Source: a virus
Taxonomy: Duplodnaviria; Heunggongvirae; Uroviricota; Caudoviricetes
Virus record (IMG/VR): IMGVR_UViG_3300045988_154997
Location: 1-64,000 of that record
Reading direction: 5' to 3' (one strand)
DNA: 64,000 nucleotides
A program made the translations under genes and the position numbers. The stretch's first letter is position 1. Every line of letters starts with the position of its first letter. The notes beneath the pieces are model-generated. The model did no database searches. It was given only the letters and a program-made list of their open reading frames with translations, and was not told where the DNA came from. Shown here in pieces: positions 1,117-57,041 of the stretch.

Positions 1117-1257
1117 AATTACACCATTAAATAATTTGTTTTCTGATTGGTGTAATTATCGCAAACTTGAAAAGGCATAAAAGCTGCATTCATAGGCGTT
1201 ACAGCAGATTTAAGGCGTAAAAATGGAGGCTGTCGCCCCCTGTCGACTGGTGCTGTA

Positions 1258-1824: not shown

Positions 1825-2121
1825 GTGTTTTCCTTAATGCTTAAACAAGTTGTTTTCTTATTGGCTTTATTGTGATGTGGCATATAAGGGGAGCAAGCTA
1901 AACGTAAAGGTGCAAACTCTCTATTTCGGTCAACGAAACACAAGGGCCAAATGGCCCTTGTCATTAACACTTTGCTTTACGAACTAACGGATAAGCGAAG
2001 TAGATCGCCAAACCAATGAGGACGCCATCAGAAATGACAGACATCATCTTTCCCGTAAAATCCACCAACACCGCCATCACCAGAAGAGCAATGACGATCA
2101 CAAGCCGGAATCTCTCAAGCA

Positions 2122-2547: not shown

Positions 2548-2640
2548 GTGTTTTCCTTTTGTTATTTGTCAAAACAAGTTGTTTTTTAGTTTCATAAATT
2601 GCTTACGCAAAGATGGTCAATGCATATGCACTAACAGCCG

Positions 2641-3333: not shown

Positions 3334-3478
3334 GTGGACTCCATCCAGTGTCAGAAAGAGTTGCGGCTGGCGATCGCCAGCCGCCTTTCTCGTTCCATCC
3401 TGGAACTGTGTCTTACCGACACATTGTCATCCTGACGCTGATAAGATACATGATTTAATATGATAGGTAAACACTTAC

Positions 3479-11620: not shown

Positions 11621-12763
11621 TTACAGGTCTGCAAACTGGCTTAGAGAAGCCTTATCCACGGTAGAATCGATCTGACCTACCAGATATGTGCTTTGCTCTG
11701 CCTCTTGTGGTGCAATTTGCAGTGTGTCGGTTAACAACCACTTGTTCATCCAGACCAGCGGATCAGTGGTAACTTCTGGAAATAAAGCCTTCAGGCCAAG
11801 ACGATTCATAGCCAGATTGGTTCGGTATTTTACATAGGTCTTCAGAATATCCGCGTTTAAACCAATCATCGAACCGTCTTTGAAGAGATAGTCTGCCCAG
11901 TTCATTTCTTGTTCGGCGACTGATTTCATGGTGTCGTAAATGACGTTTTCTTCATCAGCAGCAATCTCTTTCCACAATAAACCTTCGCGACCGGTACGCA
12001 TGAAGCGGATCATGCGTTCAGTTCCTTCGCAATGCAGAGCTTCATCACGGGCAATAAAGCGCATAATTTTGGTGTTACCCTCAAGCAACTTCCGTTCGCC
12101 AAAGGCAAACGTACATGCAAAACTTACATAGAAACGGATCGCCTCAAGCGCATTAATGGACACCAACGTGCGGAAAAGCTGACGGTGCAAAGGGTATGGC
12201 TCCCAGCCATATTCATTTACGTACAGACGTTCAAACTCTTTCTCACCTAACGACTGGCGCTCGCAGGTCATCCCATAAAGCCTGTCATATTCAGCAGAGA
12301 TACTGATCGCTCGGTTGATGATTTCTTCATCCGTAACAATACCGTCAAAAACAATGCTCGGATCGTCCACCATGCCACGAATAATGTGGGTGTAGCTGCG
12401 GCTATGGATAGTCTCAGAGAAAGACCATGTTTCAACCCACGTTTCCAGTTCAGGAATAGAGATAAGCGGCAGCAACGTTGCATTTGGGCTACGTCCCTGA
12501 ACTGAATCGAGTAACGTTTGATAACGGAGATTGCTCAGAAAAATGTGACGTTCGTGGTCCCGCAGCTTCGTGTTGAAGTCGATACGATCGCTCGAAATAT
12601 CAACTTCTTCCGGCCGCCAGAAGAAAGACAATTGACGTTCAATCAACTTTTCAAAATCACGGTATTTTTGCTGATCGTAACGTGCCACGTTGACAGATTG
12701 TCCGAGGAACATAGGCTCTTTGGTTGCATCATTAGCACCCAAACGGAACGTTGAATATGACAT
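11621..12763 (-). CDS. nrdB: Ribonucleotide reductase class Ia beta subunit (NrdB)
   Basis: [34 protein letters not shown]... near-identical in pattern to E. coli NrdB N-terminus; start set at ATG 12763 (shared initiation sequence), not 12799. Confidence 0.9.
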
Positions 12764-12790
12764 GTGTTTTTCCTTTTGCTTTTTGATATG

Positions 12791-12826
12791 TTTAAACAAG
12801 TTGTTATCTTATTTGTTTAAACAAGG
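12791..12826. promoter_or_regulatory. recurrent palindrome 'TTTAAACAAGTTGTTATCTTA' plus adjacent partial copy, upstream of nrdB (representative of 'TAAGAAAACAAnTTGTTTAA' family)
   Basis: Same element upstream of start codons at 1824, 2547, 24214, 52895, 56907 (read by eye). Confidence 0.4.
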
Positions 12827-12829: not shown

Positions 12830-12863
12830 ACAAATCAAAGAGAAGGTGGGGATATACCCCACC
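12830..12863 (-). terminator. hairpin (GGTGGGG-atata-CCCCACC) with T-rich tail between nrdA and nrdB; terminator/attenuator
   Basis: Read directly, immediately 3' of nrdA stop. Confidence 0.45.
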
Positions 12864-15223: not shown

Positions 15224-15257
15224 ATGTTAATAGATAAGCACTTACCTATCAATGAAA

Positions 15258-18761: not shown

Positions 18762-19801
18762 AAAATATCCAATTTGCTCAGATCAAATCCGCCGTCAGTA
18801 TCGTGGACAATCTTGCAATAAGCAGATACCGACTCTCCCAGGCTATCGATTTTGCTGGTTTCAGTTGTGCTGGCTGTACCTTCCATCATTGATGACTTAC
18901 GGATGAAGTTGCACACGACACCTTTTGCACCGATTGTTTTGAGGATGTTCTGGTACTTAATGCCTTCTTCATCGTTCTCAATTACGGCGCGGAAACGCAC
19001 GTAGTTGCCGCGAATTTGGTCATCAGCAACATCATCTTCCAGGTTAATGAATTTAGGCGCACTGGTTTCGTAGTGACTGAAACTGCCGTCCGGGTTTACG
19101 ATCATGTAGCCAGCCAGAGATCCAACATCTCCCCAATTTTGATGAGTCAGTGCACCGACACTGATAACTCCAGGAATGACCTCTTTGTGGTTGTGGTAAT
19201 GCCCACTAAGCACGAGACGAAAGCCGATATCCTTTAACTCCTGCGCATCGATACCGACGTCAGGCATTGTTGGAATGGCTTTGTTAATGGATGTATGGAT
19301 AACAACGTCATGATTATCACCTTCTACGCTCTTACGTAATGCTTTCAGATCGCTGATAAGCTCCGCATGATTGTTACGCCAGCTAATCAGGTGGACAGTC
19401 ACATCACCAATTTTTATTGAGTGTGGGCGCTTGCCACATACGATTACCACGCCGATAGAACTCAGCGATGCTGCTGCGTTGGCGCTATATACTGAATCGT
19501 TGGTTTCAAGATCGTGATTACCGGCCAGCATTACTACTGTCAGATCAAGCTCGTTGATAATCCACTTGTACGTTTCAGTTACGTAATGCAAAACAGAAGG
19601 GGACACAGTTCCTCGGACGTGAAATGTATCACCGGCAACCAACATGTACTTACAACCGGCCTTCTTCATGGCGATGGCTGCTTCTTTCGTTGCTTCCAAC
19701 TGTATTTCAAGTCTGGAGTTAAGCCCCTCAGCGTTCGTCGTGGAGAACGCATCCCATTTGTGGTAGTGGCAGTCAGAAATGACGCCGTATGGCAAAGTCA
19801 T
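18716..19801 (-). CDS. sbcD: SbcD/Mre11-like nuclease
   Basis: Calcineurin-like phosphoesterase motifs DCHYH, GDTFH, AGNHD, GHYH. Confidence 0.8.
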   Translation of the reverse strand: MTLPYGVISDCHYHKWDAFSTTNAEGLNSRLEIQLEATKEAAIAMKKAGCKYMLVAGDTFHVRGTVSPSVLHYVTETYKWIINELDLTVVMLAGNHDLETNDSVYSANAAASLSSIGVVIVCGKRPHSIKIGDVTVHLISWRNNHAELISDLKALRKSVEGDNHDVVIHTSINKAIPTMPDVGIDAQELKDIGFRLVLSGHYHNHKEVIPGVISVGALTHQNWGDVGSLAGYMIVNPDGSFSHYETSAPKFINLEDDVADDQIRGNYVRFRAVIENDEEGIKYQNILKTIGAKGVVCNFIRKSSMMEGTASTTETSKIDSLGESVSAYCKIVHDTDGGFDLSKLDILCQEILTEAESSEAV

Positions 19802-20055
19802 GTGTTTTTCCTTTGTGGTTATTTTGATACAAATTCTAAGAGCAATGAGGAGGTAAACAACTATGCATAACGGTATGTTAGGAATGAAACGAGCGCCTTA
19901 ATATACAAAATTTATAAGTAAGTATATACCTATTTATCGTGGCGCAACTTTGCTTGTCTGTATGACTAAAAATAAGACAGGATCACTGTAGAACGCTATG
20001 AGAGCTATTTTGAGGGGGCGTAGATTCTATCTACGCCAATATACGATCTGGAGGG

Positions 20056-20859: not shown

Positions 20860-20899
20860 GCTGTAAGCCGCGCCACGACTGGTCTGAAGCCATGTTCAT

Positions 20900-21001
20900 G
20901 TATGCTGCCAGCGGTAATTGATAGTCTGTCAACGGTTCGCCGTATGCTACCAACTGTTTTTGGTATGCTGCCAGCGGCAAATCAAGTATGCTGTCAGCGG
21001 T
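20900..21001. repeat. iteron cluster upstream of rep: 4 copies of 'GTATGCTG(C/T)CAGCGG(T/C)' (one degenerate)
   Basis: Copies at 20900, 20942, 20963, 20986. Confidence 0.8.
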
Positions 21002-21021
21002 TGAATGACAAAGGTGTCCAC

Positions 21022-22116
21022 ATGTCCACAAAAAATAAAAAAGGTAAAAATAACAAAGAAGTAGAAGATAATCTCGACAACTTTGAAGAAGGTTCCCTTG
21101 AATTGTACACAGGGGAACTTGTCCCTAATAGCAACAATACAGTCCAACCAATTGCGTTGATGCGACTGGGGTTGTTCGTCCCCACGCTTAAGGGAACAAA
21201 ATACAGTAAACGTAACAAGCCAAATGAGATCGATGCTTCAAAGGAGCTTGTCCAGCTCGAAGTAGCCCGTTCTGAAGGCTATTCCGATATCAAGATAACC
21301 GGTCCTCGCCTGGACATGGATCATGATTTCAAAACGTGGGTGGGCGTTGTGCGTTCGCTGGCAGAATACGGCGAACCTAACGGTCGTGTCGAGTTAAGCA
21401 TCACGAAATTTGCGAAGTTTTGTGGCTATCCATCGTCACAGATCCGCAAAACACTCCGCGACCGGCTTACAAACAGTCTTTTGAAGATCATGCGTACAAC
21501 TCTGTCTTTCCAGAGAACGTATGAAGAAAAGAACGTCGACGGCTCTAACAAGATCTCGCTTCTGATGGTGCACCTCATCAATAGCGTGGACTACAACGAG
21601 CAGAAAGATACGGTGGTGTTCTATGCAGAACCGAAGCTGGCCGAACTATATCGCTTTGACCATAAGGTTCTTTTGCAGTTAAAGGTTATCAATAAGCTAC
21701 CACGCAAAGAAACAGCACAGGCTCTGTACACCTTCATCGAAAGTCTTCCAACCAAGCCTGCGCCGGTATCGCTTGCTCGATTGCGTGCGCGACTCAATTT
21801 GAGTAGCAGGAATGTCAGCTCGCAGAATCAGACTATACGCAACGGCTTAAAAGCTCTCCAAGATTTGGGTTATCTCGAATACAGCGAGATTAAGCGAGGG
21901 CGGTCGATCTATATCCAGATTCACAGCCGCAATCCAAAACTCAAAGTCGCACCGCCAAAACCTGAAGACATCGAACCCAAAAAACTAGATGAGAAAGCCG
22001 GGGAAATTGATGCCAAACAGAACATTATCAATAAGATAACCGAACTTTCGCAGAATTTGACGCCTGAAAATATCAAGATGATTGAGATCCTTTCCAATAG
22101 TCTCAAACTACTTTGA
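21022..22116 (+). CDS. repA: Iteron-type replication initiator (RepA-like)
   Basis: ORF flanked on both sides by iteron arrays; start set at ATG 21022 (AAAGG RBS) because the ORF-track start 20902 lies inside the iterons; Lys-rich N-terminus. Confidence 0.6.
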   Translation: MSTKNKKGKNNKEVEDNLDNFEEGSLELYTGELVPNSNNTVQPIALMRLGLFVPTLKGTKYSKRNKPNEIDASKELVQLEVARSEGYSDIKITGPRLDMDHDFKTWVGVVRSLAEYGEPNGRVELSITKFAKFCGYPSSQIRKTLRDRLTNSLLKIMRTTLSFQRTYEEKNVDGSNKISLLMVHLINSVDYNEQKDTVVFYAEPKLAELYRFDHKVLLQLKVINKLPRKETAQALYTFIESLPTKPAPVSLARLRARLNLSSRNVSSQNQTIRNGLKALQDLGYLEYSEIKRGRSIYIQIHSRNPKLKVAPPKPEDIEPKKLDEKAGEIDAKQNIINKITELSQNLTPENIKMIEILSNSLKLL

Positions 22117-22233
22117 TATGCTGTCAGCGGTGAAATGTATGCTATCAGCGGCTATTTTTCTGAAAAGTATGCTGTGAACGGTTAAAGATATGCTACCAGC
22201 GGTATAGTGAGATAAACGTATGCTGTGAGCGGT
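22116..22233. repeat. iteron cluster downstream of rep, 5 copies
   Basis: Copies at 22116, 22137, 22167, 22188, 22218 (about 21-30 bp spacing). Confidence 0.8.
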
Positions 22234-22393
22234 AAATCATCTATCACCACTCAATGCTCTTTTAAACCTCCCCAGTGGTTACTAACCTCGAAGAGTGCAT
22301 TCCATATAGGTTTGCGCTCACTAACATTCTATTCCCATTGCGTTGATTACTTGTAGTGAAAGGTATTTATTGCCTGCTGCCCCCTGATAGAAC

Positions 22394-22648
22394 GTATGCT
22401 GTCAGCGGTGTTTTATTGAGGAATTTTTGTTTGGATATGCTATCAGCGGTAATTAATGGCATATGTCAGACCTTCGTATGCTGCCAGCGGTAATTTTGTT
22501 CTGGTTATACCCATACCGGTACACATTATTCATGCAATGTCTTAAGTATGCTGTCAGCGGTAAAAAATCGAGTAAAGTATGCTGTGAGCGGTGAGATAGA
22601 CTCTCGATATGCTATCAGCGGCAGTTGATTGTGTATGCTGTCAGCGGT
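22394..22648. repeat. second downstream iteron cluster, 7 copies (incA-like copy-control array?)
   Basis: Copies at 22394, 22435, 22476, 22546, 22577, 22607, 22633. Confidence 0.8.
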
Positions 22649-22906
22649 GACGACTATGAAATATGACTGCGGAACGTGCCGCAGTCAGTTTGCATTTAGT
22701 GTATTTTCTTCAACAGACCCCAAAGTGTTCCGGCTTTTGTAGTCAGTTTTCCTGTTTCTGGATCGTACATACGCCATTCACGCCGCTGGTGGACGATATA
22801 CCCATCTTCACGTTCCAGACGCTCAAGAATGCCAGGCTGCTTGAACCCTTAGCACGCCAGTAGCCGCTTGTTTTCTCGATTTCCAGACCTGCCAGTGTTA
22901 ATGCCA

Positions 22907-23457: not shown

Positions 23458-23733
23458 TCACTCAAAAGTGCTGATGCTTAAAATACGCTCAAGATGTTCG
23501 GCATCTTCATCACTGATTTGTTGAGTCTCTTCTACGTACCAACAGTTGCCGTTATGCCAACAAACACCATCATCATCAACCATCACTGAATCAGCGTCAT
23601 GACCTGTATATTCAACGAGAATACGCTGGATCAGCGCGTCAGTTTCTTCGTCGTTAAGGCCATCGGCTTTGACCATAAAAAGCGGAAACACGTCATAGAC
23701 AGTGCTGGTAACGATTCGAACTAAAACTCTCAT
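23458..23733 (-). CDS. hypothetical protein
   Basis: 91-aa ORF with the shared initiation sequence. Confidence 0.5.
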   Translation of the reverse strand: MRVLVRIVTSTVYDVFPLFMVKADGLNDEETDALIQRILVEYTGHDADSVMVDDDGVCWHNGNCWYVEETQQISDEDAEHLERILSISTFE

Positions 23734-23788
23734 GTGTTTTTCCTTTTGTGGTTAGTGTTTACTTATTTTGTTAGTTATGAATAGGCGA

Positions 23789-24214: not shown

Positions 24215-24262
24215 ATTTTCTTAACCCTTTAAACAAATTGTTTTCTTAATAAGATAATTGCG

Positions 24263-25340: not shown

Positions 25341-25402
25341 GTGTTTTCCTATGTGGTTGTTATGCGAAAATAATAAGTAAGTGCTTATATATTTTCAAGA
25401 GA

Positions 25403-25432: not shown

Positions 25433-26506
25433 TTACTCTTCTACTGACTCGGTGGGGTTGTCTTTTGCTCTTCGGTCGTCGATTGCCTGCAAAGCCGCAA
25501 TGATTTCAGCCAGTGGCTTCTCCCGATACATCTCAACGATCTGCGATTTGGTGTATTTCTTGTCACCAATTTCAACTCGCCCGCTGGCGTTCTTTGGCAG
25601 GTATCCTTCTTCCAGCATGTACTCGACGAGCGATTCGATAACGTCGAGGCCACGAGTAGGATCGAAGTAGAATTTCCAGGTGCATTTGCCATACGGTGGT
25701 GCAACTTTGTTTTTGATGCATTCTGCGCCTACGTCCTGGCCGATCTTCTCTTTACCATCCTTCATCACCGATGCACCAAGACGGATACGTACAGAAGCGT
25801 AGAACTTCGGTGAATCTCCACCTGGCGACGTAGTAGGGTCGCCAAACATTACACCGATTTTTGTGCGAACCTGATTCAAGAAGATGATGCAGGCGTTGTA
25901 TTTGCGTGCCCACAAAGCCAGAGTAGGGAAGTTCGCACTCGTCGCACGAGCCAGTGCCGTATTGTCGTTCATGTTTAGCTGATCTTTGTCTTTGGCAGTG
26001 CCTTCAGCCATCTTTTCGAACTTCTCGGCTTTGGAGTTCGGAACCATAGACGCAAGAGAGTCAGCCACGATACAGATAGGTGCTGATTCGGGGATAAGCT
26101 CTTCATCACGAACCAATTTAAGTATTGTGCCGATCAACTCTACAGAGTCTTCGAAGGTATCTGGCTGCTTGTATACCCACTGACCGTCATCCTCATCTGC
26201 GTTCAGGCCATTGGCTACAGCCAGGCCAACGTCAAAACTGTTTTCATGATCGAGGAATACCGCCAGACCATCTTGTTTCTGTGCGGAGATCATTGCTGCT
26301 GTTGCAAGGAACGTTTTCCCTGCACTTGGAGGGCCGAATACTTCGACGATACGACCACATGGGAAGCCGCCATCGTAACGACCAGAAATAGCTTTGTTTA
26401 ACGGTGGAAAGCCTGTATCAATCCAATGAGTTACTTTCTGAATTTCGTCGTTGCTACCGATTTTCTTTTTCAGAGCAAGTGCCAGTGCGGATTTTCCTTT
26501 TGCCAT
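25433..26506 (-). CDS. RecA/UvsX-like recombinase
   Basis: GRIVEVFGPPSAGKTFLA Walker A in RecA-like context (compare E. coli RecA GRIVEIYGPESSGKTTL). Confidence 0.75.
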   Translation of the reverse strand: MAKGKSALALALKKKIGSNDEIQKVTHWIDTGFPPLNKAISGRYDGGFPCGRIVEVFGPPSAGKTFLATAAMISAQKQDGLAVFLDHENSFDVGLAVANGLNADEDDGQWVYKQPDTFEDSVELIGTILKLVRDEELIPESAPICIVADSLASMVPNSKAEKFEKMAEGTAKDKDQLNMNDNTALARATSANFPTLALWARKYNACIIFLNQVRTKIGVMFGDPTTSPGGDSPKFYASVRIRLGASVMKDGKEKIGQDVGAECIKNKVAPPYGKCTWKFYFDPTRGLDVIESLVEYMLEEGYLPKNASGRVEIGDKKYTKSQIVEMYREKPLAEIIAALQAIDDRRAKDNPTESVEE

Positions 26507-27779: not shown

Positions 27780-28808
27780 TTACAGAGAGTCCAGCTCTCT
27801 CAGTAGCTCATCCAGACCTTCATCTTCCGTCGCAGATGCGGTTGCTACAGATGTCGCTGCGACTGCTTCAGACTCTTTGACTGATACGGCAACGGCAGCG
27901 GAACTTGCCTCTGGTTTAAATTCAGTTTCAACGGCACGGAGGATTTCTTCATCAACCAGACTGGTTGGTTCAGAAGCCGGTGTGTGCGCGGTTGCTACAG
28001 CCGTCGCTCCTTCTGTATGACCAGTGACAGAGCCAAATCCAGGTAGTGCCGCAGCCGATGTTTTCGCGGTTGAGGAAATTGCTGGTGCAGATGCTGCGGC
28101 AGTTGGTGCAGCGATGCCAATCAGACGACCCATAGTGCGAACTGTCGACAGAAGACGAGTTTCATCAGCCTGATTTGCGTATGCGATCAGATCATGCTGG
28201 GTGTTCCAGAATTTATCTTCGATATCGCCTTTGTAGACTTTACGCTTAGGCGAGACGTCATATTTGGTATCGCGACCAGAGCCAGTACGTTTAATCAGGA
28301 ATGCGTAGCCTTCCTCTTTGCTCAGTGGATTGCCGATATCATCAGCGATGTCTTCGGTGATTGCTTTGCAGATATCATCGAATACAGTAGACGGCAGCTC
28401 GATTAACTGGCATTTCTCAGCATCTGCGAAATCCTCACGAGCAGAAAGAATGCCGTTGACCAGGTAGCGAGGAGTGGCACGCATTTGACCGATGCGTTCT
28501 TCCATTGCTTTGTTACCCTTGTGACGAGCGCGACCTTCCATCACCATTTCGCATAGCTGACAAGCGCGACCGTGAGTATGTTGCTCACAAATATAAGCGT
28601 TGGTTGCTTCTTTACCTTCCTCGTTCTGATACTTAACGTAGTGCATACCGAAAGTCTGGAAGAACTTACCGTTTGGGTCGTCTTTATTCGGGAAGATGCG
28701 GATATAGTTGACGCCGTCTTTTAAGCGAGTCAGATCAACGTTGTTACCACGTTTGGCGGCAATGTCTTCACGAGTTTTGTTAAGCAAATCAAGTAATGTC
28801 TTAGACAT
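27780..28808 (-). CDS. putative ssDNA-binding protein (gp32-like?)
   Basis: Cys/His cluster CEQHTHGRACQLC, Ala/Ser/Thr-rich linker and acidic C-terminal tail DEGLDELLRELDSL; function inferred from architecture and neighbourhood. Confidence 0.4.
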   Translation of the reverse strand: MSKTLLDLLNKTREDIAAKRGNNVDLTRLKDGVNYIRIFPNKDDPNGKFFQTFGMHYVKYQNEEGKEATNAYICEQHTHGRACQLCEMVMEGRARHKGNKAMEERIGQMRATPRYLVNGILSAREDFADAEKCQLIELPSTVFDDICKAITEDIADDIGNPLSKEEGYAFLIKRTGSGRDTKYDVSPKRKVYKGDIEDKFWNTQHDLIAYANQADETRLLSTVRTMGRLIGIAAPTAAASAPAISSTAKTSAAALPGFGSVTGHTEGATAVATAHTPASEPTSLVDEEILRAVETEFKPEASSAAVAVSVKESEAVAATSVATASATEDEGLDELLRELDSL

Positions 28809-28925
28809 GTGTTTCTCCTTGTTGTGATTTGGCCGATGGCGCTATGCGCGTTGGGCTTTCGTTCATTCGTGGCTCTTTCGAGCTGTTAAATGATAGATCA
28901 GTACTTACTTATTATCTATCAAAAA

Positions 28926-34109: not shown

Positions 34110-35345
34110 TTAACCAAATATTTTTTGAACAACTTCACGTGCCGCTTGCGCAGAAGCTGAAGGGAGTTTGTTAATGAAAGAACGCTCAATACCTGTCACA
34201 AAGTCGCCTCGCATCATTCCAATCTTGGCCGACAACAAAAGTTCACGAGGGCCAATCGGCTGACTGATCAGGTGTTCTTCGTATCCATCGCGAACGATAC
34301 CGGCAAACTTAACCATCTTTTCAGCGTATTCATCCACGATGCCAGCATTTATCAACATGTTGATCTCTGCCTCTTTGCTCATGTATTTCACATTCGAAAC
34401 GATGCCAAAACGCGAAAAGTTAGCGGCGTTCTGGATGTTTGTACCCTGGTACAAGCCGGTTTCATCACCAGATCCGTTCGTGTTGCCAGTGCCAATGAAA
34501 GCAAACCGTTCATGCGGAGTAATGCGACGCCATTCTTGAGTCGCCTCTTTGATGACCAACGCTTCACCTTCCAGCACTGGCTGATACACGCCAAGAATCT
34601 GTGGAAACGCAAAGTCGTATTCATCCGCGAGGTAAACCCAGCCATGCTTCATTGCGAGCGCAAGCAAGCCAGGCTCGAAATACGTAGAGCCATCACGCGC
34701 CAGAATTTGTCCCGTAACATGAGCCTCTTCCATTGATGCTGTATGTTGGGCACGGATTAACGGACGATTGAGCAAAGCACATAGTTGTGTAGGCAATGAA
34801 GATTTGCCTGTTCCTGCATGACCCCACAAATAGCCTGGTATGCCAAGTTCAAGCATCATGAAAATGTCTTTGATCAGTTCGAAGTCGCCATATACGTATC
34901 CCTTCTTCACTTCTGGAACGAACTCTGGAAACGGCGTATTGACGTTGACGCTAACCATGAGCGGCGTCCCACGTTTTGTTCCGAGTTCTTTCACCGTTAC
35001 ATTTAGCAGTTCGTGAGCTGCGACCAGATCTGTCTTGTACTCAACTGTGCCTGTATAGCCTGGGCTATTGGTCACGCCAGATGATTTGGCCATTTCGCTT
35101 ATTTGCTCGGCACGTTTAGCTTGAATTGCATCAAGTGCCTTTTTCGATAGCGTTGGCTCATCTGGAAACTGCGTTGTGTACATTTTCAGTACGGTGTCAG
35201 GATCGGCATCTTTTACTGACTCAGGAATGCCCTCGCAATTACCATTGGCTACATGGGACTTAAAATAGTGAAATGATTTTCCGCACCACTTGCAAACAAG
35301 GTAATCAGAAGGATTTTTTTCATTTTGCAGTGCAGTAGTAGTCAT
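34110..35345 (-). CDS. MoxR/CobS-like AAA+ ATPase
   Basis: Walker A GHAGTGKSSL, Walker B-like WVYLADEYD; N-terminal Cys/His (CKWCGKSFHYFKSH) zinc-finger-like segment. Confidence 0.75.
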   Translation of the reverse strand: MTTTALQNEKNPSDYLVCKWCGKSFHYFKSHVANGNCEGIPESVKDADPDTVLKMYTTQFPDEPTLSKKALDAIQAKRAEQISEMAKSSGVTNSPGYTGTVEYKTDLVAAHELLNVTVKELGTKRGTPLMVSVNVNTPFPEFVPEVKKGYVYGDFELIKDIFMMLELGIPGYLWGHAGTGKSSLPTQLCALLNRPLIRAQHTASMEEAHVTGQILARDGSTYFEPGLLALAMKHGWVYLADEYDFAFPQILGVYQPVLEGEALVIKEATQEWRRITPHERFAFIGTGNTNGSGDETGLYQGTNIQNAANFSRFGIVSNVKYMSKEAEINMLINAGIVDEYAEKMVKFAGIVRDGYEEHLISQPIGPRELLLSAKIGMMRGDFVTGIERSFINKLPSASAQAAREVVQKIFG

Positions 35346-35440
35346 GCGTTTTTCCTTTGTTTTCTAATGAGCTTTCAACTTCTTATATAAATATACCATC
35401 AAATATCGTAAGTGATTACTTATCATTAAGGCTATTCTAA

Positions 35441-37549: not shown

Positions 37550-37647
37550 GGCTAATCCTTTGTTATGAAAACAAATTATTTACTAGTGTGTTTAATGTAG
37601 CACTGCGCGAACAGGGAACTAAGCCATTCGCGCAGGGAGAAGAGGGG

Positions 37648-37860
37648 TTAACAGATTCTGACGGCTAAAGACCCGGAGCCGGTATTGAGAAGCGTGAAGC
37701 GTTTGTTGTTAAGTTCGAATATAAAGCCAGTGGTGTCATTCACACCAACCTGAATCTGCTCATTCGGTAGATCGGTAAGGATGTCTGTTACACACTCAAC
37801 AGCTAATTTTTGTACGTGTCCGATCTCAAGAGCGATTAGGCTGGAAATAGTGGTGTTCAT
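37648..37860 (-). CDS. hypothetical small protein
   Basis: 70-aa ORF. Confidence 0.35.
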   Translation of the reverse strand: MNTTISSLIALEIGHVQKLAVECVTDILTDLPNEQIQVGVNDTTGFIFELNNKRFTLLNTGSGSLAVRIC

Positions 37861-38105
37861 TCAATCAATCCATTCTAACTTATACTATGGTAAGGAATAC
37901 TACTAAAATTTGTATCAATACTGAATACATTCATATCATATGCAAGTTACTTTTCTTACCTATTTTGGGCTAATTTTTCTCCGTGCAATGGCCTTTAACC
38001 GGTCTTTTAAGTGCCTATCGAAAAAAATGATAATAGCTTTACAACCCTAACCTTTGATGTAATATCGGTAAGCACTTACCAGAGAGAATTGAACGCGCAA
38101 AGGTT

Positions 38106-38498
38106 GTGACCATGTCTGATAACAAGATTGAATTTATAGAAAGTCGCTACGCTGCTTTTATCGCAGGGTTGATTGAATCCTCACCTATGAGCCAGGCCCA
38201 GATAGCCAAAACAATTGGGTATAAAAACGCCAACAACCTTTCTTTAATTAAAAGCGGCAAAATTCCTTTGCCTATCGATAAGGTTCGTCCGCTGGCGCTG
38301 GCACTGGGTATTGAGCCAAGTCGTCTTATGATGATGGTGCTGGAAGAACGCCAACCCGAACTCGCAGCATTTTTATACAAAGAAGGCACTGCTCCTCTTA
38401 ACGAGGACGAAAAACAGGTTCTTGCTGCATATAACGAGCGATTCGGTAAAGAGAAAGGCGCATCACAAAAGGTTGTTGAGGCCATAAAGTCTCTATGA
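38106..38498 (+). CDS. XRE/Cro-type helix-turn-helix transcriptional regulator
   Basis: MSQAQIAKTIGYKNANNLSLIKSG...ALALGIEPSRL HTH pattern. Confidence 0.6.
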   Translation: MTMSDNKIEFIESRYAAFIAGLIESSPMSQAQIAKTIGYKNANNLSLIKSGKIPLPIDKVRPLALALGIEPSRLMMMVLEERQPELAAFLYKEGTAPLNEDEKQVLAAYNERFGKEKGASQKVVEAIKSL

Positions 38499-39596
38499 AA
38501 AATTTACACGAATAAGCTCTGTTGATAGACGATCTCCCTTAAATTTGTGGTCAATTTCGTCTAAATCCGGTTGCTCTACGATTGATGCGATGTACGTCGA
38601 GAAACTTTCTAAGGCGTCTCGCATCTCGTCCATATAATCGTGCCGGTCGTAGACCCGATCTATCCCCTCAAGACTGTGGTTCATGATTTTACGTGATACC
38701 TCCTGGCTTATGCCTAATGCTGGGAAGTAACTACGCGCAGTACGGCGCAAATCTCGGGGTGTAAATGGCTCAAGCTCCATCAGTTCTGGTCGTTCCAGAA
38801 TACGACGTAATGCCTGGGCTATTGCCACTTTAGACATAGGAAGGTCTTTCCCGATTTTTTTATTCGAAGGCACGAGCCACTGGCTGTCTTTACCATATTC
38901 GAACAACTCTTCAATACATGTGCGCATTAATGAGCTTAAAGGCAGAGAATGCTCACGGGCAGATTTGTTCCTCTTGCCTTGATTCCAAACCCCACGCTTA
39001 AGATTGAACTCACTTTTTTTAGCCCGCAGTACTTCGTCAGGTCGTCTTGCGGATACAAGACATAGCCTGGCCGCCCATTTTGTACCAGCACACACATTGA
39101 AGTAGTCCCATATATTCCAGAACACCCATACCTCTGCGTCGGTCAGCTTCCGCTCGCGAGGTGTGGGCTTTGCGCCACCGGCAACTTTGTTAAGTGACAT
39201 ATCGTTTAACGGTGACACGTCGATCATCCCCTGGAAGGCGCACCAGCTGAGGAACTGCTTCATCAGAGAGAAAACGCGGCGACCCATAACAATTTTGCCA
39301 TCCAGTATTAGTGGGTTGACCAGTTGGTTCACCATGAACCTATTAATATCACTTACTTTTACATCGGCAATGTGCGGCAAAACATGTATCAAAATACAAT
39401 GAACAGCGATCTCTGGCCGACGTCTTGTTATCAGCAGAGATAAGCGAGTGAATAACATGAATGCGTCCGAGAATCTCATGTCATTGCTGACCTGGGAGAT
39501 CATAACGGCCTGCATTTGAGATGCTCTTTCGAGATACTCAATCGCCTCTTTTGAGGTGTTCTCCGCAGCGCGTGCTCTGTCAAAGCTATTTTTCAT
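38493..39596 (-). CDS. tyrosine recombinase / phage integrase family protein
   Basis: C-terminal catalytic region ...RDLRRTARSY...HSLEGIDRVYDRHDY (R, H-x-x-R, Y pattern). Confidence 0.7.
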   Translation of the reverse strand: MKNSFDRARAAENTSKEAIEYLERASQMQAVMISQVSNDMRFSDAFMLFTRLSLLITRRRPEIAVHCILIHVLPHIADVKVSDINRFMVNQLVNPLILDGKIVMGRRVFSLMKQFLSWCAFQGMIDVSPLNDMSLNKVAGGAKPTPRERKLTDAEVWVFWNIWDYFNVCAGTKWAARLCLVSARRPDEVLRAKKSEFNLKRGVWNQGKRNKSAREHSLPLSSLMRTCIEELFEYGKDSQWLVPSNKKIGKDLPMSKVAIAQALRRILERPELMELEPFTPRDLRRTARSYFPALGISQEVSRKIMNHSLEGIDRVYDRHDYMDEMRDALESFSTYIASIVEQPDLDEIDHKFKGDRLSTELIRVNFS

Positions 39597-39804
39597 ATGA
39601 CAATCACCGAGTTACGCCGATGCACTGTATAAGTAAACAGTATATTAGGCATAGATTCTTATAGGATCAAGAGTAAAAGTAACTCATTTTCAGTAATGAT
39701 TCCATACATAGTAGGTATGGAATCATTGGGGGGCGATTTTTTTGAATCTATCTTTTCGAACGGAGGGGTTGGCTTCACTTTTATCTTCATCACCTAAAAG
39801 GTAA

Positions 39805-40794
39805 TTGATTTACTTGAAAATGGCTGGTTTTATAGTATTGTCATGCGATCGCTGCAACAGGATAAGAAAAATGATAAAAGAGACACCGGAAGTCAACACG
39901 CTATCTGAGTTATTAGGGGCTACGCCTCCCAAACCTCAGCTAGTAGTGACGACTAAAGGTATTGATTTAGGTCTGGATATCTCCCTCGGAGATTGGAATA
40001 ACTCTTCATTATTATCACGACCTTCAGCTTTGTTAGCAATTGAGCATGGGGAAAATTTATTTGAACTCATGGATAAAGAGTTAGGTCTTGTTGGTATTAA
40101 TGAAGAAGGAGTGATCAAGTCAAACATCATTATCGAACTAGATCCCCATAAAACAACTATGAGAATATTAGGTAAAATTGCGGAAGCACTCATTGTTGAA
40201 GAATGTGAAAAAAACGCGAAACAAAATGAAAACTGGGCATTATTAGCAAAGAGATATACCCCTTTCACAGATAGTTTGTCTAATTATAAAGCTGTTGGGA
40301 CTGGACTCAACTATACGAAAATTAACTATCCTACTAAATATCAACCTAATGATACTCAACGGGACATTGTGTGGATAGACAAACGAGACCCACTTTCTCA
40401 ATTACTTATTTCTGCTCCAACGTCGAATTCAGGTATACAGGCTGGAATTCAAGTGAAGGTCAGTGCAAATGGTCTTAACTATCTATCACCAATGGATTTT
40501 TCTAGCAGAAGATATGAGGTCCCTATTGTTTACTTTGATTTAAATAATGATTTTTTTGAAATTCAGATGAAGATAGTGAACTCAGGAATTGATTCGGTTT
40601 ATGGAATGGATTATCACCGTGGTAGAAACATTTCTCCTGAAATACATGAAAAACTATGTGCATATTATAACCTTATATACTCCATTATCATTGGTGATAT
40701 GAAATTAGAGGCTCTGTTACTAAATGAAGAGGCACTGAAAGGGTATGTGACTGAGATTAAAGATAGACAAGGTAAAAGAATAATCGTGACGTGA
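39805..40794 (+). CDS. AT-rich hypothetical protein (accessory, unknown function)
   Basis: 329-aa plus-strand ORF immediately after the integrase; no motif recognised; true start may be an internal ATG. Confidence 0.45.
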   Translation: MIYLKMAGFIVLSCDRCNRIRKMIKETPEVNTLSELLGATPPKPQLVVTTKGIDLGLDISLGDWNNSSLLSRPSALLAIEHGENLFELMDKELGLVGINEEGVIKSNIIIELDPHKTTMRILGKIAEALIVEECEKNAKQNENWALLAKRYTPFTDSLSNYKAVGTGLNYTKINYPTKYQPNDTQRDIVWIDKRDPLSQLLISAPTSNSGIQAGIQVKVSANGLNYLSPMDFSSRRYEVPIVYFDLNNDFFEIQMKIVNSGIDSVYGMDYHRGRNISPEIHEKLCAYYNLIYSIIIGDMKLEALLLNEEALKGYVTEIKDRQGKRIIVT

Positions 40795-40986
40795 AAACCT
40801 AAACTGTAAAGGCAACAAAAGGTGAAATAATAACTCATTAAAAGCACATTGTGTGAAATTTTAATCTGATAATTCATATATCGGAAGGGATTTTAGATAT
40901 TTTTAATATTTATAACTGTCCTTTTCATAGATATAGTTGATTTGAGCGCACACTTTCATGTAAAAAGCCGCCTAAGCGGCTCTTAA

Positions 40987-41232
40987 TTATAATGTACTCA
41001 CCAGAGCGGCGAATTCCGTATAGCCACCGATAGATTCGCCATTTACGAACACCTGCGGTATGGTCTCCACCGGCTTGCCAACCAGGGCGCTCAATTTCTC
41101 TTTGTCTATCCCAGCAGACACAATATCGATGTATTCGTAATCGCCAAAACCGTGACCGTGAAGCTGCTTCGCCAGCTCGACCGCACGTTTGCAGTATGAG
41201 CAGTTATCTCGTCCATAGATAGTGATCGTCAT
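40987..41232 (-). CDS. Glutaredoxin (NrdH/Grx-like)
   Basis: 81 aa, active-site CSYC, thioredoxin-fold length. Confidence 0.75.
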   Translation of the reverse strand: MTITIYGRDNCSYCKRAVELAKQLHGHGFGDYEYIDIVSAGIDKEKLSALVGKPVETIPQVFVNGESIGGYTEFAALVSTL

Positions 41233-41521
41233 TGCTTTGCCTCGTTATGCGCTTCGCTGGGGAACGTGTAGCGGTTAGTGAAAGAGCTGAGGTGGTAGTG
41301 CTCGTGAATGTATGGATTTGACTTCTGCACCTGACGAGATGCGCGACGCGCATGTTTACATTTATTTCCCATATTGAGTCCTTTCAAGTGAGTATCCGAA
41401 AGAACTATACAGTTAACGTGCGTAAAAAGTAAGTGCTTACCTATCATTTATTGATAGAAGAATAGCCGCCTGTCGTGTGATACTATTTACAGAACTAAAC
41501 TGGCTTTCCACAAGGTGTAAA

Positions 41522-42343
41522 ATGACTATCCTTGAAAATCCTGATGCGAATGTTGAATCTGTTTATAGTCTTCATCCAACCACGTTGTTTCATTTTACAA
41601 AAAACGAAGATGCTTTCTATAGCATATTGGCTGAGAAATATTTTAAACCATTTCTTGCTCGCGAGGAAATAAGAGGAGTCGGGGGACGCAGGAGGTTTGC
41701 AGTACCAATGGTATCGTTTTGTGACATAAAACTATCACAAATCAGAGATCATAGCGGAAAATATGGAGAATTCGGTCTTGGGCTAACTAAGTCTTGGGCG
41801 GAAAAGAAAGGTCTACACCCAGTTCTATATATGAATAAGAGTAGTGAAATATTTTCTAAATACAATGCCAGAATTCGACTTATTAAAAATAAGTTGGTGC
41901 CGCTTTGGAAGGCTAGAGGAAATTTAGATACCAAAAACAGAATAGAGTTTGAGAAATTGAAAGCAGAATATTCTGATCTATATAATTTACTGCGTTATAT
42001 GAAAAATTACAGAGGCAAGCTAGAGCGAAAAGATAATAAAACAATAGAGAATTATATATATGCAGACGAGAAAGAGTGGCGTTATGTGCCAGCTCCTTTT
42101 ATTGGTGATTTATGGCCTAGTCTGAGTTTGGAGCGTGTTATCACTTCTGATGACAAAGCAAAAATTAGCTCAAAATTTTCAAAGTTTGGCATTGATTTTG
42201 AGTTCAATGATATAAAATATATACTTATACCTAAAGAACAACATATCCAAAAGCTAATTAACTTTCTCTCAGGTTTAGATGGATTTGAATCTTCAATTAT
42301 TAGCAAAATTCTGACCATGGATAAAGTAAAGCAAGATTTTTAA
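41522..42343 (+). CDS. DUF2971-like protein (candidate defence cassette, gene 1)
   Basis: RBS AAGGTG-N4-ATG at 41522; motifs LFHFTKNEDAFYSIL and HSGKYGEFGLGL resemble the LYKY.../...HKG.C.GF signatures seen in the clearer DUF2971 protein at 55116..55835; AT-rich. Confidence 0.45.
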   Translation: MTILENPDANVESVYSLHPTTLFHFTKNEDAFYSILAEKYFKPFLAREEIRGVGGRRRFAVPMVSFCDIKLSQIRDHSGKYGEFGLGLTKSWAEKKGLHPVLYMNKSSEIFSKYNARIRLIKNKLVPLWKARGNLDTKNRIEFEKLKAEYSDLYNLLRYMKNYRGKLERKDNKTIENYIYADEKEWRYVPAPFIGDLWPSLSLERVITSDDKAKISSKFSKFGIDFEFNDIKYILIPKEQHIQKLINFLSGLDGFESSIISKILTMDKVKQDF

Positions 42344-42369
42344 TTTTTGGTTTAACGGGAGCCTAATTA

Positions 42370-43581
42370 GTGTCAATATTTTTAAGCGAAAAGGAAATGC
42401 AAAATTGGATAATTGACAAATTATCTGATCAAGATGGATTATATAATTCAATCATCAATATTGATAAATTAAATGAATTTAATCCGAAAAGACCCGAAGA
42501 GAAAAAAATTAAGGAGAGTTATCAGTTTTGTTTAAAGAACATAACATTGTTACATTTAATGACAGATGATGAGAATATCTCAGCAACAAAATCTGAGATA
42601 TTAAGACCTGATGTCGTTGCTTATTCAACAGAGAATGAATCCTTAGTTCTTATTGAGTTAAAAAATTTTTCAACACCAACAAGGGAAGCTGGAACTGAGC
42701 TAGTGGCATATGCTGCGGAACTAAAAAGTTACTTGTCATACTTGTCTGATGGAGATATTACCAATGTACTTATATCACCTGACTGGCCACCTTTGGTTAG
42801 ACACTTTATTTTTAATATGATCGTGTGGCAGAAGAAAAACTTTCTATGTTTAGAACCTTGCTATGATTTACAAGGTAACGTATCACTTACTCCTTTAGAT
42901 ATTAATAAATTAGTTATTGCGGAAGAAGCACTCAAGTTCTCATTTCGTCATCTTGGCGGGTTTCATATATGTTTGTATGATGATGAAATGTATAATCAAC
43001 CGACTTCCACTTCTCGTTTACATTCGAAATTGAATGTTATTAAAGCCAGCATGGCAAAAATGTCCTCAGACGGTGAAAAGACTAATAGCCATGGGTTTGC
43101 TATTTTATGTAGAAATTTGAACGAGAGAACTTTAGCACCATATACGATTACTCTAGTTAATGTTTCTGCGTTTTCTTCCATAGAGCGATACTTTCATTCG
43201 CCACAAATATCCAATGCTTCTCAACTCCCTAGAATAGGACAAAAAATTTATGACATTTACACTCATTACCAACCATCAGGTTTTGGGGCATCAATGTCGA
43301 AAATTTACAATTCTGGGAGGGCATATTTAGAAAAAATTAATTGCAAGCCGCGGATCGAGGTTATAGACACCTGGGATGTATTGCAAGTACATACACATGC
43401 GCCTTATATGGAAATGGTTCATATTGAAACGTGGGGAGTTTTTAAAGAAAAATTGATTGAAGGTCTAAATGAATGTTATGAGGATGAATATTACACACCT
43501 GATTTTAACGATGTAGATTTTTGCATGGTGTGTATTGAATCCTTAATTGACCAGAATTATGAATTTATAAAACTTTTTTGA
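42370..43581 (+). CDS. PD-(D/E)xK nuclease-like protein (candidate defence cassette, gene 2)
   Basis: GTG start with GGGAG RBS; N-proximal RPDVVAYSTENESLVLIELK fits D...E-x-K restriction-endonuclease-like motif; rest unrecognised. Confidence 0.45.
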   Translation: MSIFLSEKEMQNWIIDKLSDQDGLYNSIINIDKLNEFNPKRPEEKKIKESYQFCLKNITLLHLMTDDENISATKSEILRPDVVAYSTENESLVLIELKNFSTPTREAGTELVAYAAELKSYLSYLSDGDITNVLISPDWPPLVRHFIFNMIVWQKKNFLCLEPCYDLQGNVSLTPLDINKLVIAEEALKFSFRHLGGFHICLYDDEMYNQPTSTSRLHSKLNVIKASMAKMSSDGEKTNSHGFAILCRNLNERTLAPYTITLVNVSAFSSIERYFHSPQISNASQLPRIGQKIYDIYTHYQPSGFGASMSKIYNSGRAYLEKINCKPRIEVIDTWDVLQVHTHAPYMEMVHIETWGVFKEKLIEGLNECYEDEYYTPDFNDVDFCMVCIESLIDQNYEFIKLF

Positions 43582-43584
43582 AGA

Positions 43585-43608
43585 AAAGGGGCCGAAGCCC
43601 CTTTGAAT
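43585..43608. terminator. bidirectional hairpin terminator (GGGGC-cgaa-GCCCC) closing both the plus-strand cassette and the minus-strand tRNA operon
   Basis: Read directly; T-run TTTTCTTCAAAAAA on minus strand, weaker T-run on plus. Confidence 0.6.
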
Positions 43609-43679
43609 ATTGCGCTGAAAAAAAGTGTTGCTAGGATGTTAGCAAGCTATGGTTAAGAACGTCTGCCGTAATTGTCAAT

Positions 43680-43757: not shown

Positions 43758-43759
43758 TC

Positions 43760-44146: not shown

Positions 44147-44150
44147 AATT

Positions 44151-52895: not shown

Positions 52896-52938
52896 GTGCT
52901 TTCCTTTGTTTTTTAAACAAATTGTTTTCTAGTATTAG

Positions 52939-55879: not shown

Positions 55880-56239
55880 TTAACCTTTCTTCATCAACTC
55901 GCGTTTGATTTCATCGGTACGCATCGTGACGTCGGCAGCAGTGATCGCCTCGTTAAGTTTCACGATATCCTCGATTTCCTGCGGCGACTTCTCTGCCAGA
56001 TGGAAAATAGCAGCACGAATCACATCAGAGCGGGTGAATTTCTCGAAGCGAGGGATGAACTTCATCATCTCCAGCAGTTCGAAGTATTCGTCTTCCAGTG
56101 ACATTGTGCGGCTTTTAATTTTCTCTTTGCCACGAGTCGGGCGTCCCTGTGGTCTGACTGGTTGGCGCAAAGGAGTTGTGTTCTTAGCCGGTGCATCAGG
56201 CTCTTTGCGCTTTGCTAGGTCACCCATTTTCATGGACAT
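55880..56239 (-). CDS. ribbon-helix-helix centromere-binding protein (ParG-like partner of ParA)
   Basis: Basic/Pro-rich N-terminal tail then RHH-like SRTMSLEDEYFELLEMM...RSDVIRAAIFHLAEK; directly downstream of parA. Confidence 0.5.
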   Translation of the reverse strand: MSMKMGDLAKRKEPDAPAKNTTPLRQPVRPQGRPTRGKEKIKSRTMSLEDEYFELLEMMKFIPRFEKFTRSDVIRAAIFHLAEKSPQEIEDIVKLNEAITAADVTMRTDEIKRELMKKG

Positions 56240-56907
56240 TATTCTTCTTCCTCCAGACTCAACAGATAATCTACAAATTCTTCAAACTCGGCTTCCGCCT
56301 TTTTGTCGCGCTCGCTACCGGTCATTTCAAAGATAGAACGACCAGACTCTTCCGCATCATCGTAGACGTTGCGGTTATATAGATTGACAGGCGCAGACTC
56401 GATGCCAAACGTCTCGACAATCTCTTTAGCCGCCAGAATGCGAGACACTTGTGATGGCAAAGCCGGGCACTGGTTCATGACCGCGCGGACCTTCACTTTA
56501 TCGTTTACATTGCGAACATTGTCGATAATAGGATCGATGTCACGTAAAGATTTCAAATCACGACGCTTAGGACGCAGCGGGATAATGATAACGTCAGCCA
56601 TCAGCATCGCTTGTCGCTGAATTTCGGAGTCGAAGCCACCAGCATCTACCACTACATACTCAGCTCTACCCTGAAGCGATTTTAGGTGCTTAATGATGTC
56701 ATCCTGAACGTATGCAAAAGGAATCAGCTCAAGGTCTTCGTTCTGTCGACGGTCTTCACACCAGCTCGTTGTCGTGCGCTGAATATCTATATCGGTGATA
56801 TAAACCTTCTTCTTCTTTTTGACTTTCAGGCAAACGGCAATTTGCTGGGCAACGGTGGATTTGCCAGGCCCGCCCTTTGTGCCGCCAACCACAAAGATCT
56901 TGGTCAT
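56239..56907 (-). CDS. parA: ParA-family partition ATPase (small, type Ib-like)
   Basis: Deviant Walker A KIFVVGGTKGGPGKST; 222 aa. Confidence 0.8.
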   Translation of the reverse strand: MTKIFVVGGTKGGPGKSTVAQQIAVCLKVKKKKKVYITDIDIQRTTTSWCEDRRQNEDLELIPFAYVQDDIIKHLKSLQGRAEYVVVDAGGFDSEIQRQAMLMADVIIIPLRPKRRDLKSLRDIDPIIDNVRNVNDKVKVRAVMNQCPALPSQVSRILAAKEIVETFGIESAPVNLYNRNVYDDAEESGRSIFEMTGSERDKKAEAEFEEFVDYLLSLEEEE

Positions 56908-57041
56908 TGGAGAGTTCCCTTTGCGTATATAATTATCGTCTGAAACAACTTGTTTTCTTATATGTGATATAGCCTAAATGCCTACGGCTGTGGTGTAAAG
57001 GTTTAATGATAGGTACATAGATTTGGTAAGGACTTAATAAC

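Follow-up and report, generated by a model that had tools for sequence, protein, structure and literature searches.

The stretch of DNA analysed here (64,000 nucleotides, referred to throughout as the window) is part of an SSU5-like phage-plasmid. In a 3.6-kb comparison it showed 99% identity with Cyrano, the phage of E. coli LF82. For the segment carrying nrdAB, identity is 99.4% to Escherichia phage Cyrano (accession OV696614; pLF82, the phage-plasmid that LF82 carries) and about 77% to Salmonella phage SSU5 and Klebsiella phage-plasmids. Comparison of the whole window showed that the Cyrano-like backbone is broken up by non-homologous blocks, and the minus strand carries nearly all of the backbone genes. 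Three tRNAs were the only Rfam matches in the window.

Short sequences recur immediately upstream of many of these backbone genes, including nrdB. The string AACAANTTGTT has six exact matches in the window (1844-1854, 2573-2583, 12795-12805, 24232-24242, 52916-52926 and 56944-56954) against 0.18 expected, and none of 100 shuffles reached six, confirming the recurrent upstream palindrome that the initial annotation had described. Allowing one mismatch in the 13-bp core adds two further copies, at 1129-1141 and 37569-37581. All eight sites precede minus-strand ATG codons, at core-to-ATG distances of 12-35 nt, a wider range than the 15-25 nt first proposed. The description as a palindrome stands for the 13-bp core (AAACAA-n-TTGTTT), to which the symmetry is limited, but not for the unit as a whole, as the flanks are directional (AGA...A) and the recurrent element is an oriented 17-mer, AGAAAACAAnTTGTTTA. 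The sites in the window, with the features that accompany them, are as follows.

1128..1144, minus strand: putative operator 17-mer AGAAAACAAATTATTTA; core 1129-1141, one mismatch; 12 nt 5' of the ATG at 1116, where a homologue of the start of CYRAN_90 begins
1155-1163: extended -10 TGCGATAAT, belonging to the 1128..1144 site
1842..1858, minus strand: putative operator 17-mer AGAAAACAACTTGTTTA; core 1843-1855; 18 nt 5' of the ATG at 1824 (CYRAN_87 homologue); CACAAT (1869-1874) occupies the -10 position of the family
2571..2587, minus strand: putative operator variant AAAAAACAACTTGTTTT; core 2572-2584; 24 nt 5' of the ATG at 2547 (TciA-like gene)
12793..12809, minus strand: putative operator 17-mer AGATAACAACTTGTTTA; core 12794-12806, one mismatch; 30 nt 5' of the nrdB ATG at 12763
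12813..12824, minus strand: everted half-site pair TTGTTTAAACAA, its centre about 20 bp upstream of the nrdB operator
24230..24246, minus strand: putative operator 17-mer AGAAAACAATTTGTTTA; core 24231-24243; 16 nt 5' of the ATG at 24214 (CYRAN_58 homologue); preceded by a terminator hairpin
37568..37584, minus strand: degenerate or flipped copy with core AAATAATTTGTTT; core 37569-37581; 19 nt 5' of the ATG at 37549 (CobT-like); the SSU5 orthologue is a perfect forward copy
52914..52930, minus strand: putative operator 17-mer AGAAAACAATTTGTTTA; core 52915-52927; 19 nt 5' of the ATG at 52895 (DnaB-like helicase); kept in the SSU5, K. pneumoniae and K. oxytoca elements
56942..56958, minus strand: putative operator 17-mer AGAAAACAAGTTGTTTC; core 56943-56955; 35 nt 5' of the parA ATG at 56907

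Two copies had been counted at nrdB. There is one canonical site, whose single mismatch creates a TAACAA half, and beside it the everted pair, a different feature that is kept in Cyrano and SSU5 and whose arrangement is unlike that of the operator. The nrdB site follows nrdA, the terminator hairpin of which (12845-12863) lies upstream of the operator.

A second shared sequence in the window ends at the start codons themselves. The exact 16-mer AAAGGAAAAACACATG occurs three times, and eight copies are found with up to two mismatches, against 0.14 expected.

12761..12776, minus strand: exact leader AAAGGAAAAACAC-ATG of nrdB
2545-2560, 19799-19814, 23731-23746 and 28806-28821: leader members, each the 16 nt ending at the start codon
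33927-33942, 35343-35358 and 51471-51486: further leader members, delimited in the same way

The 11 starts originally listed for this sequence are all ATG codons with a leader of the same kind, and the shared initiation region is real; "almost invariant" overstated it, with the starts at 1824, 25340 and 52895 fitting only with a one-base deletion or extra mismatches. In Cyrano, 12 genes lie within three mismatches of AAAGGAAAAACAC-ATG, separated by a clear gap from all others. These 12 are found among the 40 first-in-unit genes of the DNA-metabolism module (genes of the replication, recombination and nucleotide module with an upstream spacer of at least 40 nt) and none elsewhere, the structural, lysis and small-early-gene regions of Cyrano having no leader genes. 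As the initial annotation had held, the leader is independent of the palindrome, occurring behind AAACAAnTTGTTT sites, behind another palindrome (GGTAAGnnCTTACC, discussed below) and behind neither. SSU5 orthologues keep AAACAC-ATG even where the remaining leader has diverged. Leaders are 62% A and 6% T, and their folding energies (-2.3 kcal/mol, vs -4.8 for other genes, P = 0.0009) point to a structure-poor, A/C-rich leader that probably serves translation efficiency and would give the first gene of each unit efficient, independent initiation without translational coupling. Near-identical short sequences just before the start codons of a subset of genes also occur as the SAS of Cluster K mycobacteriophages and as the operators of T4 RegA, the RegA subset being enriched in replication genes. 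The SSU5-like leader differs from these in sequence and contains a Shine-Dalgarno motif with an A/C-rich spacer; its low structure may explain it fully, and a dedicated translational regulator of the leader has a low probability.

The occurrence of the 17-mer was followed through related genomes. The complete genomes of Cyrano and SSU5 hold 18 and 22 core sites, respectively. In Cyrano, 15 of the 18 are fully intergenic, compared with 13.2% non-coding DNA (P = 3e-11), and the remaining three overlap annotated starts that are doubtful. When IMG/VR was scanned for exact matches to the 18 specified bases, at least 116 viral loci were found. Of the 116 matches listed, 102 could be aligned with Cyrano along more than 20% of the contig, three further contigs are SSU5-like variable regions with 5-8 sites each, and the others are single hits, mostly in low-GC contigs; apart from these single hits, the motif is, among the matches listed, confined to the SSU5-like lineage. 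Orthologous promoters of Cyrano, SSU5 and the K. oxytoca and K. pneumoniae elements (parA, helicase, nrdB, cobT and polIII) keep the site while their flanks diverge. In the K. oxytoca element, whose helicase is no more than 68% identical, parA and the helicase still have the site upstream, and two sites precede a shared-leader gene, taken for polIII; in the K. pneumoniae element, too, the site precedes both parA and the helicase. In the parA promoter, the 17-mer is the sole block common to the E. coli/Salmonella/Klebsiella pneumoniae group and the K. oxytoca group. Six sites are retained in Y. pestis pMT1, and no copy of the palindrome was found in the 41 kb examined of an Acinetobacter relative.

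The position of the sites relative to promoter elements was derived from 124 non-redundant oriented contexts. A -10-like hexamer with the consensus gATAAT lies at -16 to -11 from the AGA flank, its final T being conserved in 112 of the 124; as for the extended -10, T is found at -19 in 66 contexts and G at -18 in 55, and A occupies the predicted start in 82. There is no recognisable -35 in this promoter family. Within the window, a strong extended -10 accompanies the site at 1129-1141 only, a TG motif upstream of the -10 is present at one of the eight sites, the other sites have weak hexamers (CACAAT, AGCAAT, CGCAAT, GGCTAT and similar), and a generic -35/-10 scan returned no promoter at the window sites. 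Some sites, that of nrdB especially, may work on read-through transcripts rather than on promoters of their own. As the spacing to the hexamer is fixed, the centre of the palindrome would fall near +14 of the predicted transcript, and as the gap between site and ATG can be as small as 9-12 nt, Shine-Dalgarno included, the transcript is not expected to start downstream of the palindrome.

Outside the window, an array of small genes (93-98.5 kb in Cyrano, 82-95 kb in SSU5) contains many textbook TGnGATAAT promoters, several of which carry a second, inverted 17-mer. Spacing between neighbouring sites is quantised: 15 distinct contexts have a distance of 51 bp and six a distance of 25 bp, and the 51-bp upstream copy is centred near -37 on the same helix face. 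In the inverted upstream copies the AGA flank is present too, on the opposite strand, which indicates that the entire 17-mer is recognised and that the flank is not a feature of the promoter strand. Some promoters, for example those at Cyrano 85818 and 97190, have only the upstream inverted copy, in a class-II-like position. The same two-operator promoter also stands before non-homologous first genes, encoding DUF5983 in Cyrano and DUF1380 in SSU5, evidence that cassettes have been exchanged at these units. In total, enrichment, intergenic placement, fixed position relative to the -10-like hexamer and conservation bear out the initial proposal of an operator-like cis element belonging to a co-regulated set of genes.

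The same proposal held these genes to be highly expressed. In RNA-seq of the LF82 lysogen, with a background median of 9.8, the genes behind the sites are near background, at 5.7-25.5, with parA at 50 (PMC9928086 supplement), so that high expression is not what the Cyrano lysogen displays. Normalised expression values from the same supplement (PMC9928086) are listed below.

nrdB: 12.9
Helicase: 21
cobT: 7.8
CYRAN_58: 5.7
CYRAN_85: 7.0
CYRAN_87: 7.1
CYRAN_101: 7.5
CYRAN_105: 12.8
CYRAN_106: 12.2
CYRAN_110: 6.7
CYRAN_111: 25.5
parA: 50

With sigma-70-like promoters, silent genes and a site at +14 that is sometimes bracketed by another at -37, repression is the simplest interpretation, and silence in the lysogen would fit an absent activator as well as a bound repressor. 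On balance, we consider it probable that the 17-mer is the dispersed operator of a phage-encoded repressor acting at sigma-70-type promoters, and that the leader is a separate feature; here we infer the transcription start, repression rather than activation, and the identity of the binder. An SSU5-like genome would thus contain about 16-22 copies of the 17-bp operator AGAAAACAAnTTGTTTA. Transcription is predicted to start about 4 nt before the AGA, placing the operator at roughly +5 to +21, centred near +14, with a Shine-Dalgarno motif and ATG within the 12-35 nt after it. A subset of promoters would have an inverted copy exactly 51 bp upstream, near -37, the two sites bracketing the polymerase-binding site. 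A phage-encoded, oligomeric DNA-binding protein may occupy these sites and block initiation or promoter escape, such that small accessory early genes and genes for replication and nucleotide metabolism would be kept silent in the plasmid-prophage state, and parA held down more weakly. Alternatively in timing, the same genes may be shut off after early expression.

Other explanations of the same pattern were weighed against this one. Were the palindrome an operator in the mRNA 5'UTR, an FljA-family protein (CYRAN_114, encoded outside the window) could bind the palindrome leader, the AAAGGAAAAACAC-AUG sequence or both, in the manner of T4 RegA. The palindrome is indeed predicted to lie inside the 5'UTR, the leader, like the RegA regulon, is associated with replication genes, and a full-length Flag1_repress (FljA) homologue is encoded (E = 1e-80) and also kept in SSU5 and pMT1. 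The family has a precedent in that its members prevent fliC mRNA from being translated (PMC2652032), but the homologue may simply target host flagellin. The substitution pattern also speaks against an RNA structure, with departures of the core from consensus comprising 51 one-sided substitutions and no compensatory ones, a free central base (A 39, C 28, G 28, T 29) and a best RNA hairpin of only -0.7 kcal/mol; whole leaders fold no better than shuffles (z-scores positive), and Rfam gave no family match for the element. The -37 copies, which fall outside the transcript in antisense orientation, nonetheless retain the full 17-mer. From one-sided variation, a negligible hairpin and copies outside the transcript, we read the palindrome as a protein-binding DNA site. 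An RNA acting at the palindrome, which the initial annotation had also allowed, is disfavoured, and with palindrome and leader occurring independently of each other, translational control by the FljA-family protein seems very improbable. Activation fares slightly better. An activator, or a dual-function switch that activates from -37 and represses from +14 to bring about an early-to-middle transition, would account for promoters that lack a -35, for the upstream-only inverted copies at the class-II-like position in Cyrano (85818 and 97190) and for genes that are silent without induction. Most sites, however, including all eight in the window, are downstream of the predicted start, where activation is not expected, and the two-copy promoters with their strict 51-bp spacing resemble bracketing operators; we regard this reading as unlikely.

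The recurrence could also reflect a copied promoter cassette or recombination boundary with no dedicated trans-acting factor, or one served by a host architectural protein such as IHF. The shared two-operator promoter before the DUF5983 and DUF1380 genes is what such copying would produce, and the core differs at only two positions from the IHF consensus WATCAANNNNTTR. Conservation, however, is sharply concentrated on the 17-mer, next to which the promoter sequence varies; inverted copies and a strict spacing of 51 bp indicate the geometry of a bound protein; and positions that IHF does not require are invariant. All of this leaves the explanation highly improbable. Likenesses to rrn/lambda boxA, IHF sites, KdgR boxes and N4-type hairpin promoters were too weak to be retained. 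For the repressor reading, the question becomes which phage protein binds, and three genes in the window are relevant.

38106..38498, plus strand: XRE-type HTH regulator, CYRAN_45 family, annotated as a putative repressor
56239..56907, minus strand: parA, small Walker-type ParA of 222 aa (Pfam AAA_31, MipZ, CbiA)
55880..56239, minus strand: ParA partner of 119 aa, candidate ribbon-helix-helix centromere-binding protein

The XRE-type protein, put forward initially as a regulator to be examined for binding, has its annotation in its favour as the repressor at the AAACAAnTTGTTT sites, along with expression about tenfold over background in the lysogen (PMC9928086 supplement). Plasmid records with a homologue number 865 in this supercommunity, and the regulator is nearly universal in plasmid-state relatives. 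It is missing from phage SSU5, which would fit SSU5 being a derepressed derivative that has kept its operators; because the regulator is present in those 865 plasmid records and SSU5 may be a deletion derivative, this absence is uninformative as an argument against the XRE protein. Its own control region, however, contains a perfect GGTAAGCACTTACC at 38067-38080, 31 nt before the XRE ATG, and no AAACAAnTTGTTT copy between 37540 and 38130. Sites related to GGTAAGCACTTACC, with a consensus of about TAGGTAAGyrCTTACCTA, are dispersed in the window, Cyrano and SSU5. The XRE homologues of K. oxytoca and Acinetobacter likewise lie behind lineage-specific versions of this other palindrome, with no AAACAAnTTGTTT motif in either control region, and the Acinetobacter relative keeps the regulator while having no AAACAAnTTGTTT in 41 kb. 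Half-sites 7 bp apart would, moreover, be unusually close for a classical HTH dimer. Given the other palindrome at these control regions, the XRE protein more likely pairs with GGTAAGnnCTTACC; it is not the favoured binder, and the chance that it is the repressor at the 17-mers appears slim.

The leading candidate is instead the ParA partner, which may be both the autorepressor of its own operon and a global repressor, an assignment that we put forward tentatively and that is possible rather than probable. It is encoded in an operon whose promoter bears the 17-mer, and it is expressed in the lysogen (89; PMC9928086 supplement). Its sequence KSRTMSLEDEY...TRSDVIRAAI fits the ribbon-helix-helix pattern, the match to the ribbon-helix-helix family aCcr1 being sub-threshold (E = 2e-4, 21 bits vs a 60-bit cutoff), and there was no Pfam hit. 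AlphaFold gave a poor model (pLDDT 67) in which residues 48-59 and 70-82 form helices, and a Foldseek search with it found nothing. The predicted DNA-contacting strand, KSRTMS, is identical in all four motif-bearing lineages (E. coli, Salmonella, K. pneumoniae and K. oxytoca), and the Acinetobacter partner has a different strand and its own local boxes before parA. These are four clustered 8-bp boxes (GTATTACC) and not dispersed, and were rejected as a parallel for that reason. Half-sites 7 bp apart would suit adjacent ribbon-helix-helix dimers. The result from pMT1 is ambiguous, since this decayed plasmid is without the partner yet keeps its six sites. In Cyrano, the homologue of the partner is annotated as a RelE/ParE toxin.

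The neighbouring ParA scores 115 bits against NF041546 (ParA_partition), under the 180-bit cutoff, and is without an N-terminal HTH domain, as expected of the small Walker-type proteins of type Ib partition. The parA promoter, however, holds a single palindrome and not the contiguous repeat array of a type Ib centromere. A scan of genome contigs for distant homologues of the ParA partner, intended for a covariation comparison, returned close relatives only. CYRAN_37, 46, 101-111, 113, 117 and 123 were also considered as binders and set aside, with no DNA-binding assignment in Pfam, PHROGs, NCBIfam or PDB sequences; CYRAN_113 is not expressed in the lysogen (PMC9928086 supplement). It is a more speculative idea that the ParA partner may use the roughly 16-22 dispersed 17-mers as a scattered centromere as well as operators, and we give it a modest chance.

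Several well-studied replicons offer comparisons for the repressor reading. Phage P1 is a plasmid prophage that carries asymmetric 17-bp C1 operators at many promoters, including that of a DnaB-like helicase, and its C1 sites together make up a single repressor regulon, which stays silent in the lysogen. Both the C1 operators and the SSU5-like 17-mer are asymmetric, 17 bp long and dispersed over the promoters of a plasmid prophage; the C1 site, ATTGCTCTAATAAATTT, is unrelated in sequence, and the SSU5-like site has an internal 13-bp palindrome. Operators of the lac O1 type likewise have their centre at about +11 to +14 and an auxiliary site some five turns away on the same face of the DNA, but the SSU5-like start is predicted, and the SSU5-like auxiliary site is not far upstream but overlaps the -35 region. 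In pSM19035, RK2 and N15, partition-operon proteins (omega, a ribbon-helix-helix protein, KorB and SopB, respectively) act on short repeats at several promoters or other sites of the replicon, and sites of a dispersed, centromere-like kind are reported for all three (PMC3235114, PMC9499535). Similarly, the SSU5-like parA promoter shares its site with about 15 others, and the candidate ParA partner looks ribbon-helix-helix-like. The omega centromere of pSM19035 requires at least four contiguous heptads, and the ribbon-helix-helix centromeres known so far are made of repeats in contiguous arrays rather than of single palindromes (PMC9499535); unlike the heptad array, the SSU5-like locus has one palindrome, or two placed 51 or 25 bp apart. 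The Acinetobacter relative, with local boxes only, is also unlike the dispersed SSU5-like arrangement. By analogy, the architecture is like that of the dispersed C1 operators of P1 or that of the operators of omega and KorB, which are global plasmid regulators.

Searching the literature for the motif string gave no match, and nothing was found on the regulation of SSU5 or pHCM2; papers on SSU5-like elements do not discuss regulation, and no description was found of how these elements decide between persisting as plasmids and growing lytically. Both the sequence and its regulon therefore appear to be undescribed. Among clinical Enterobacteriaceae, the SSU5-like phage-plasmids form a very large family, and the helicase query alone returned 930 plasmid records. 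For this family, the motif would define a regulon of about 16-22 promoters per genome, predict transcription units and a two-site operator geometry, and leave a few testable proteins as candidates for the regulator. The 17-mer is also a lineage-specific marker and offers a handle for reporter, ChIP and derepression work. Should the ParA partner prove to be the binder, plasmid segregation would be tied directly to the repression of lytic genes. The partition protein itself would then keep the phage promoters for early functions, replication and nucleotide metabolism silent, with the XRE regulator and its separate GGTAAGnnCTTACC sites governing another tier of genes, and a single protein would enforce both stable inheritance and maintenance of the prophage state.

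A second dispersed palindrome, with a consensus of about TAGGTAAGyrCTTACCTA, gave 9 matches in the window at up to two mismatches, against 1.5 expected, and is probably the element that the initial annotation had counted as its "first" palindrome. Copies in the window include:

38067-38080, palindrome copy
about 3467-3478, further copy
about 15234-15245, further copy
about 25377-25388, further copy
about 35408-35419, further copy
about 41429-41440, further copy
about 57026-57037, further copy

Palindromes of this type are also carried by Escherichia phage Cyrano and Salmonella phage SSU5, where some copies precede structural and lysis genes, and the counterpart in an Acinetobacter relative is TCAGTCAGTACTGACTGA. 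The XRE regulator, the HTH protein encoded at 38106-38498 (+), has a copy in its control region in three lineages. Comparison of SSU5 (NC_018843) around 42.5-42.8 kb with window 37850-39600 showed that the pair formed by the integrase and this regulator, which 865 plasmid records from this family contain, is missing from phage SSU5, which may be a deletion derivative without a lysogeny regulator that it once had.

At about 87.9-88.05 kb in SSU5, in a divergent control region separating two small genes, a perfect LexA box, CTGTATATATAAACAG, adjoins a promoter bearing the motif (the dispersed 17-mer regarded as a putative operator). The same arrangement of LexA box and motif-bearing promoter recurs in related viral contigs (for example L021, L029 and L053), and this juxtaposition of sites suggests an SOS-controlled input into the circuit. 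Ciprofloxacin induces Cyrano. Cyrano and SSU5 also carry, at about 56-134 and outside the window, two motif copies spaced by 25 bp, then a GC-rich hairpin and T-run directly 5' of the small terminase gene; this region may serve late-operon control or antitermination.

Regions in which the window differs from Cyrano, listed with their genes and neighbouring features:

39751-44240, opposite strand, low-GC block (about 37%) absent from Cyrano
41477-42343, AbiGi-like abortive-infection protein within this block
44074-44317, three tRNA genes, which with an integrase flank the block
20889-22695, replication-initiator region unlike that of Cyrano
20902-22116 (+), 404-aa protein with a Rep3_N domain

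The low-GC block is probably defence cargo, and the domain assignment of the Rep3_N protein points to a swapped replicon module. RecA is 357 aa in the window; the 2340-nt Cyrano recA gene holds about 1.26 kb of extra sequence (Cyrano 55256-56520) without counterpart at window 26315-26317, which may be an intein or other insertion.

Two reference annotations are likely in error. The 119-aa partner of ParA (55880-56239, -), labeled a RelE/ParE toxin in Cyrano, resembles instead an RHH centromere-binding protein. For the primase, the probable start codon is the ATG at 51473, after the A/C-rich leader shared by DNA-metabolism genes, rather than the upstream GTG at 51545.

Finally, a full-length member of the FljA family (Pfam Flag1_repress, E = 1e-80) is encoded by SSU5-like phage-plasmids, its gene lying outside the window:

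Cyrano 100780-101301, CYRAN_114
SSU5, SSU5_121
Y. pestis plasmid pMT1, 34531-35058

To this family belongs the repressor that acts post-transcriptionally on phase-1 flagellin. In SSU5-like phage-plasmids, the protein could target host flagellin, silencing it, or the phage leaders.
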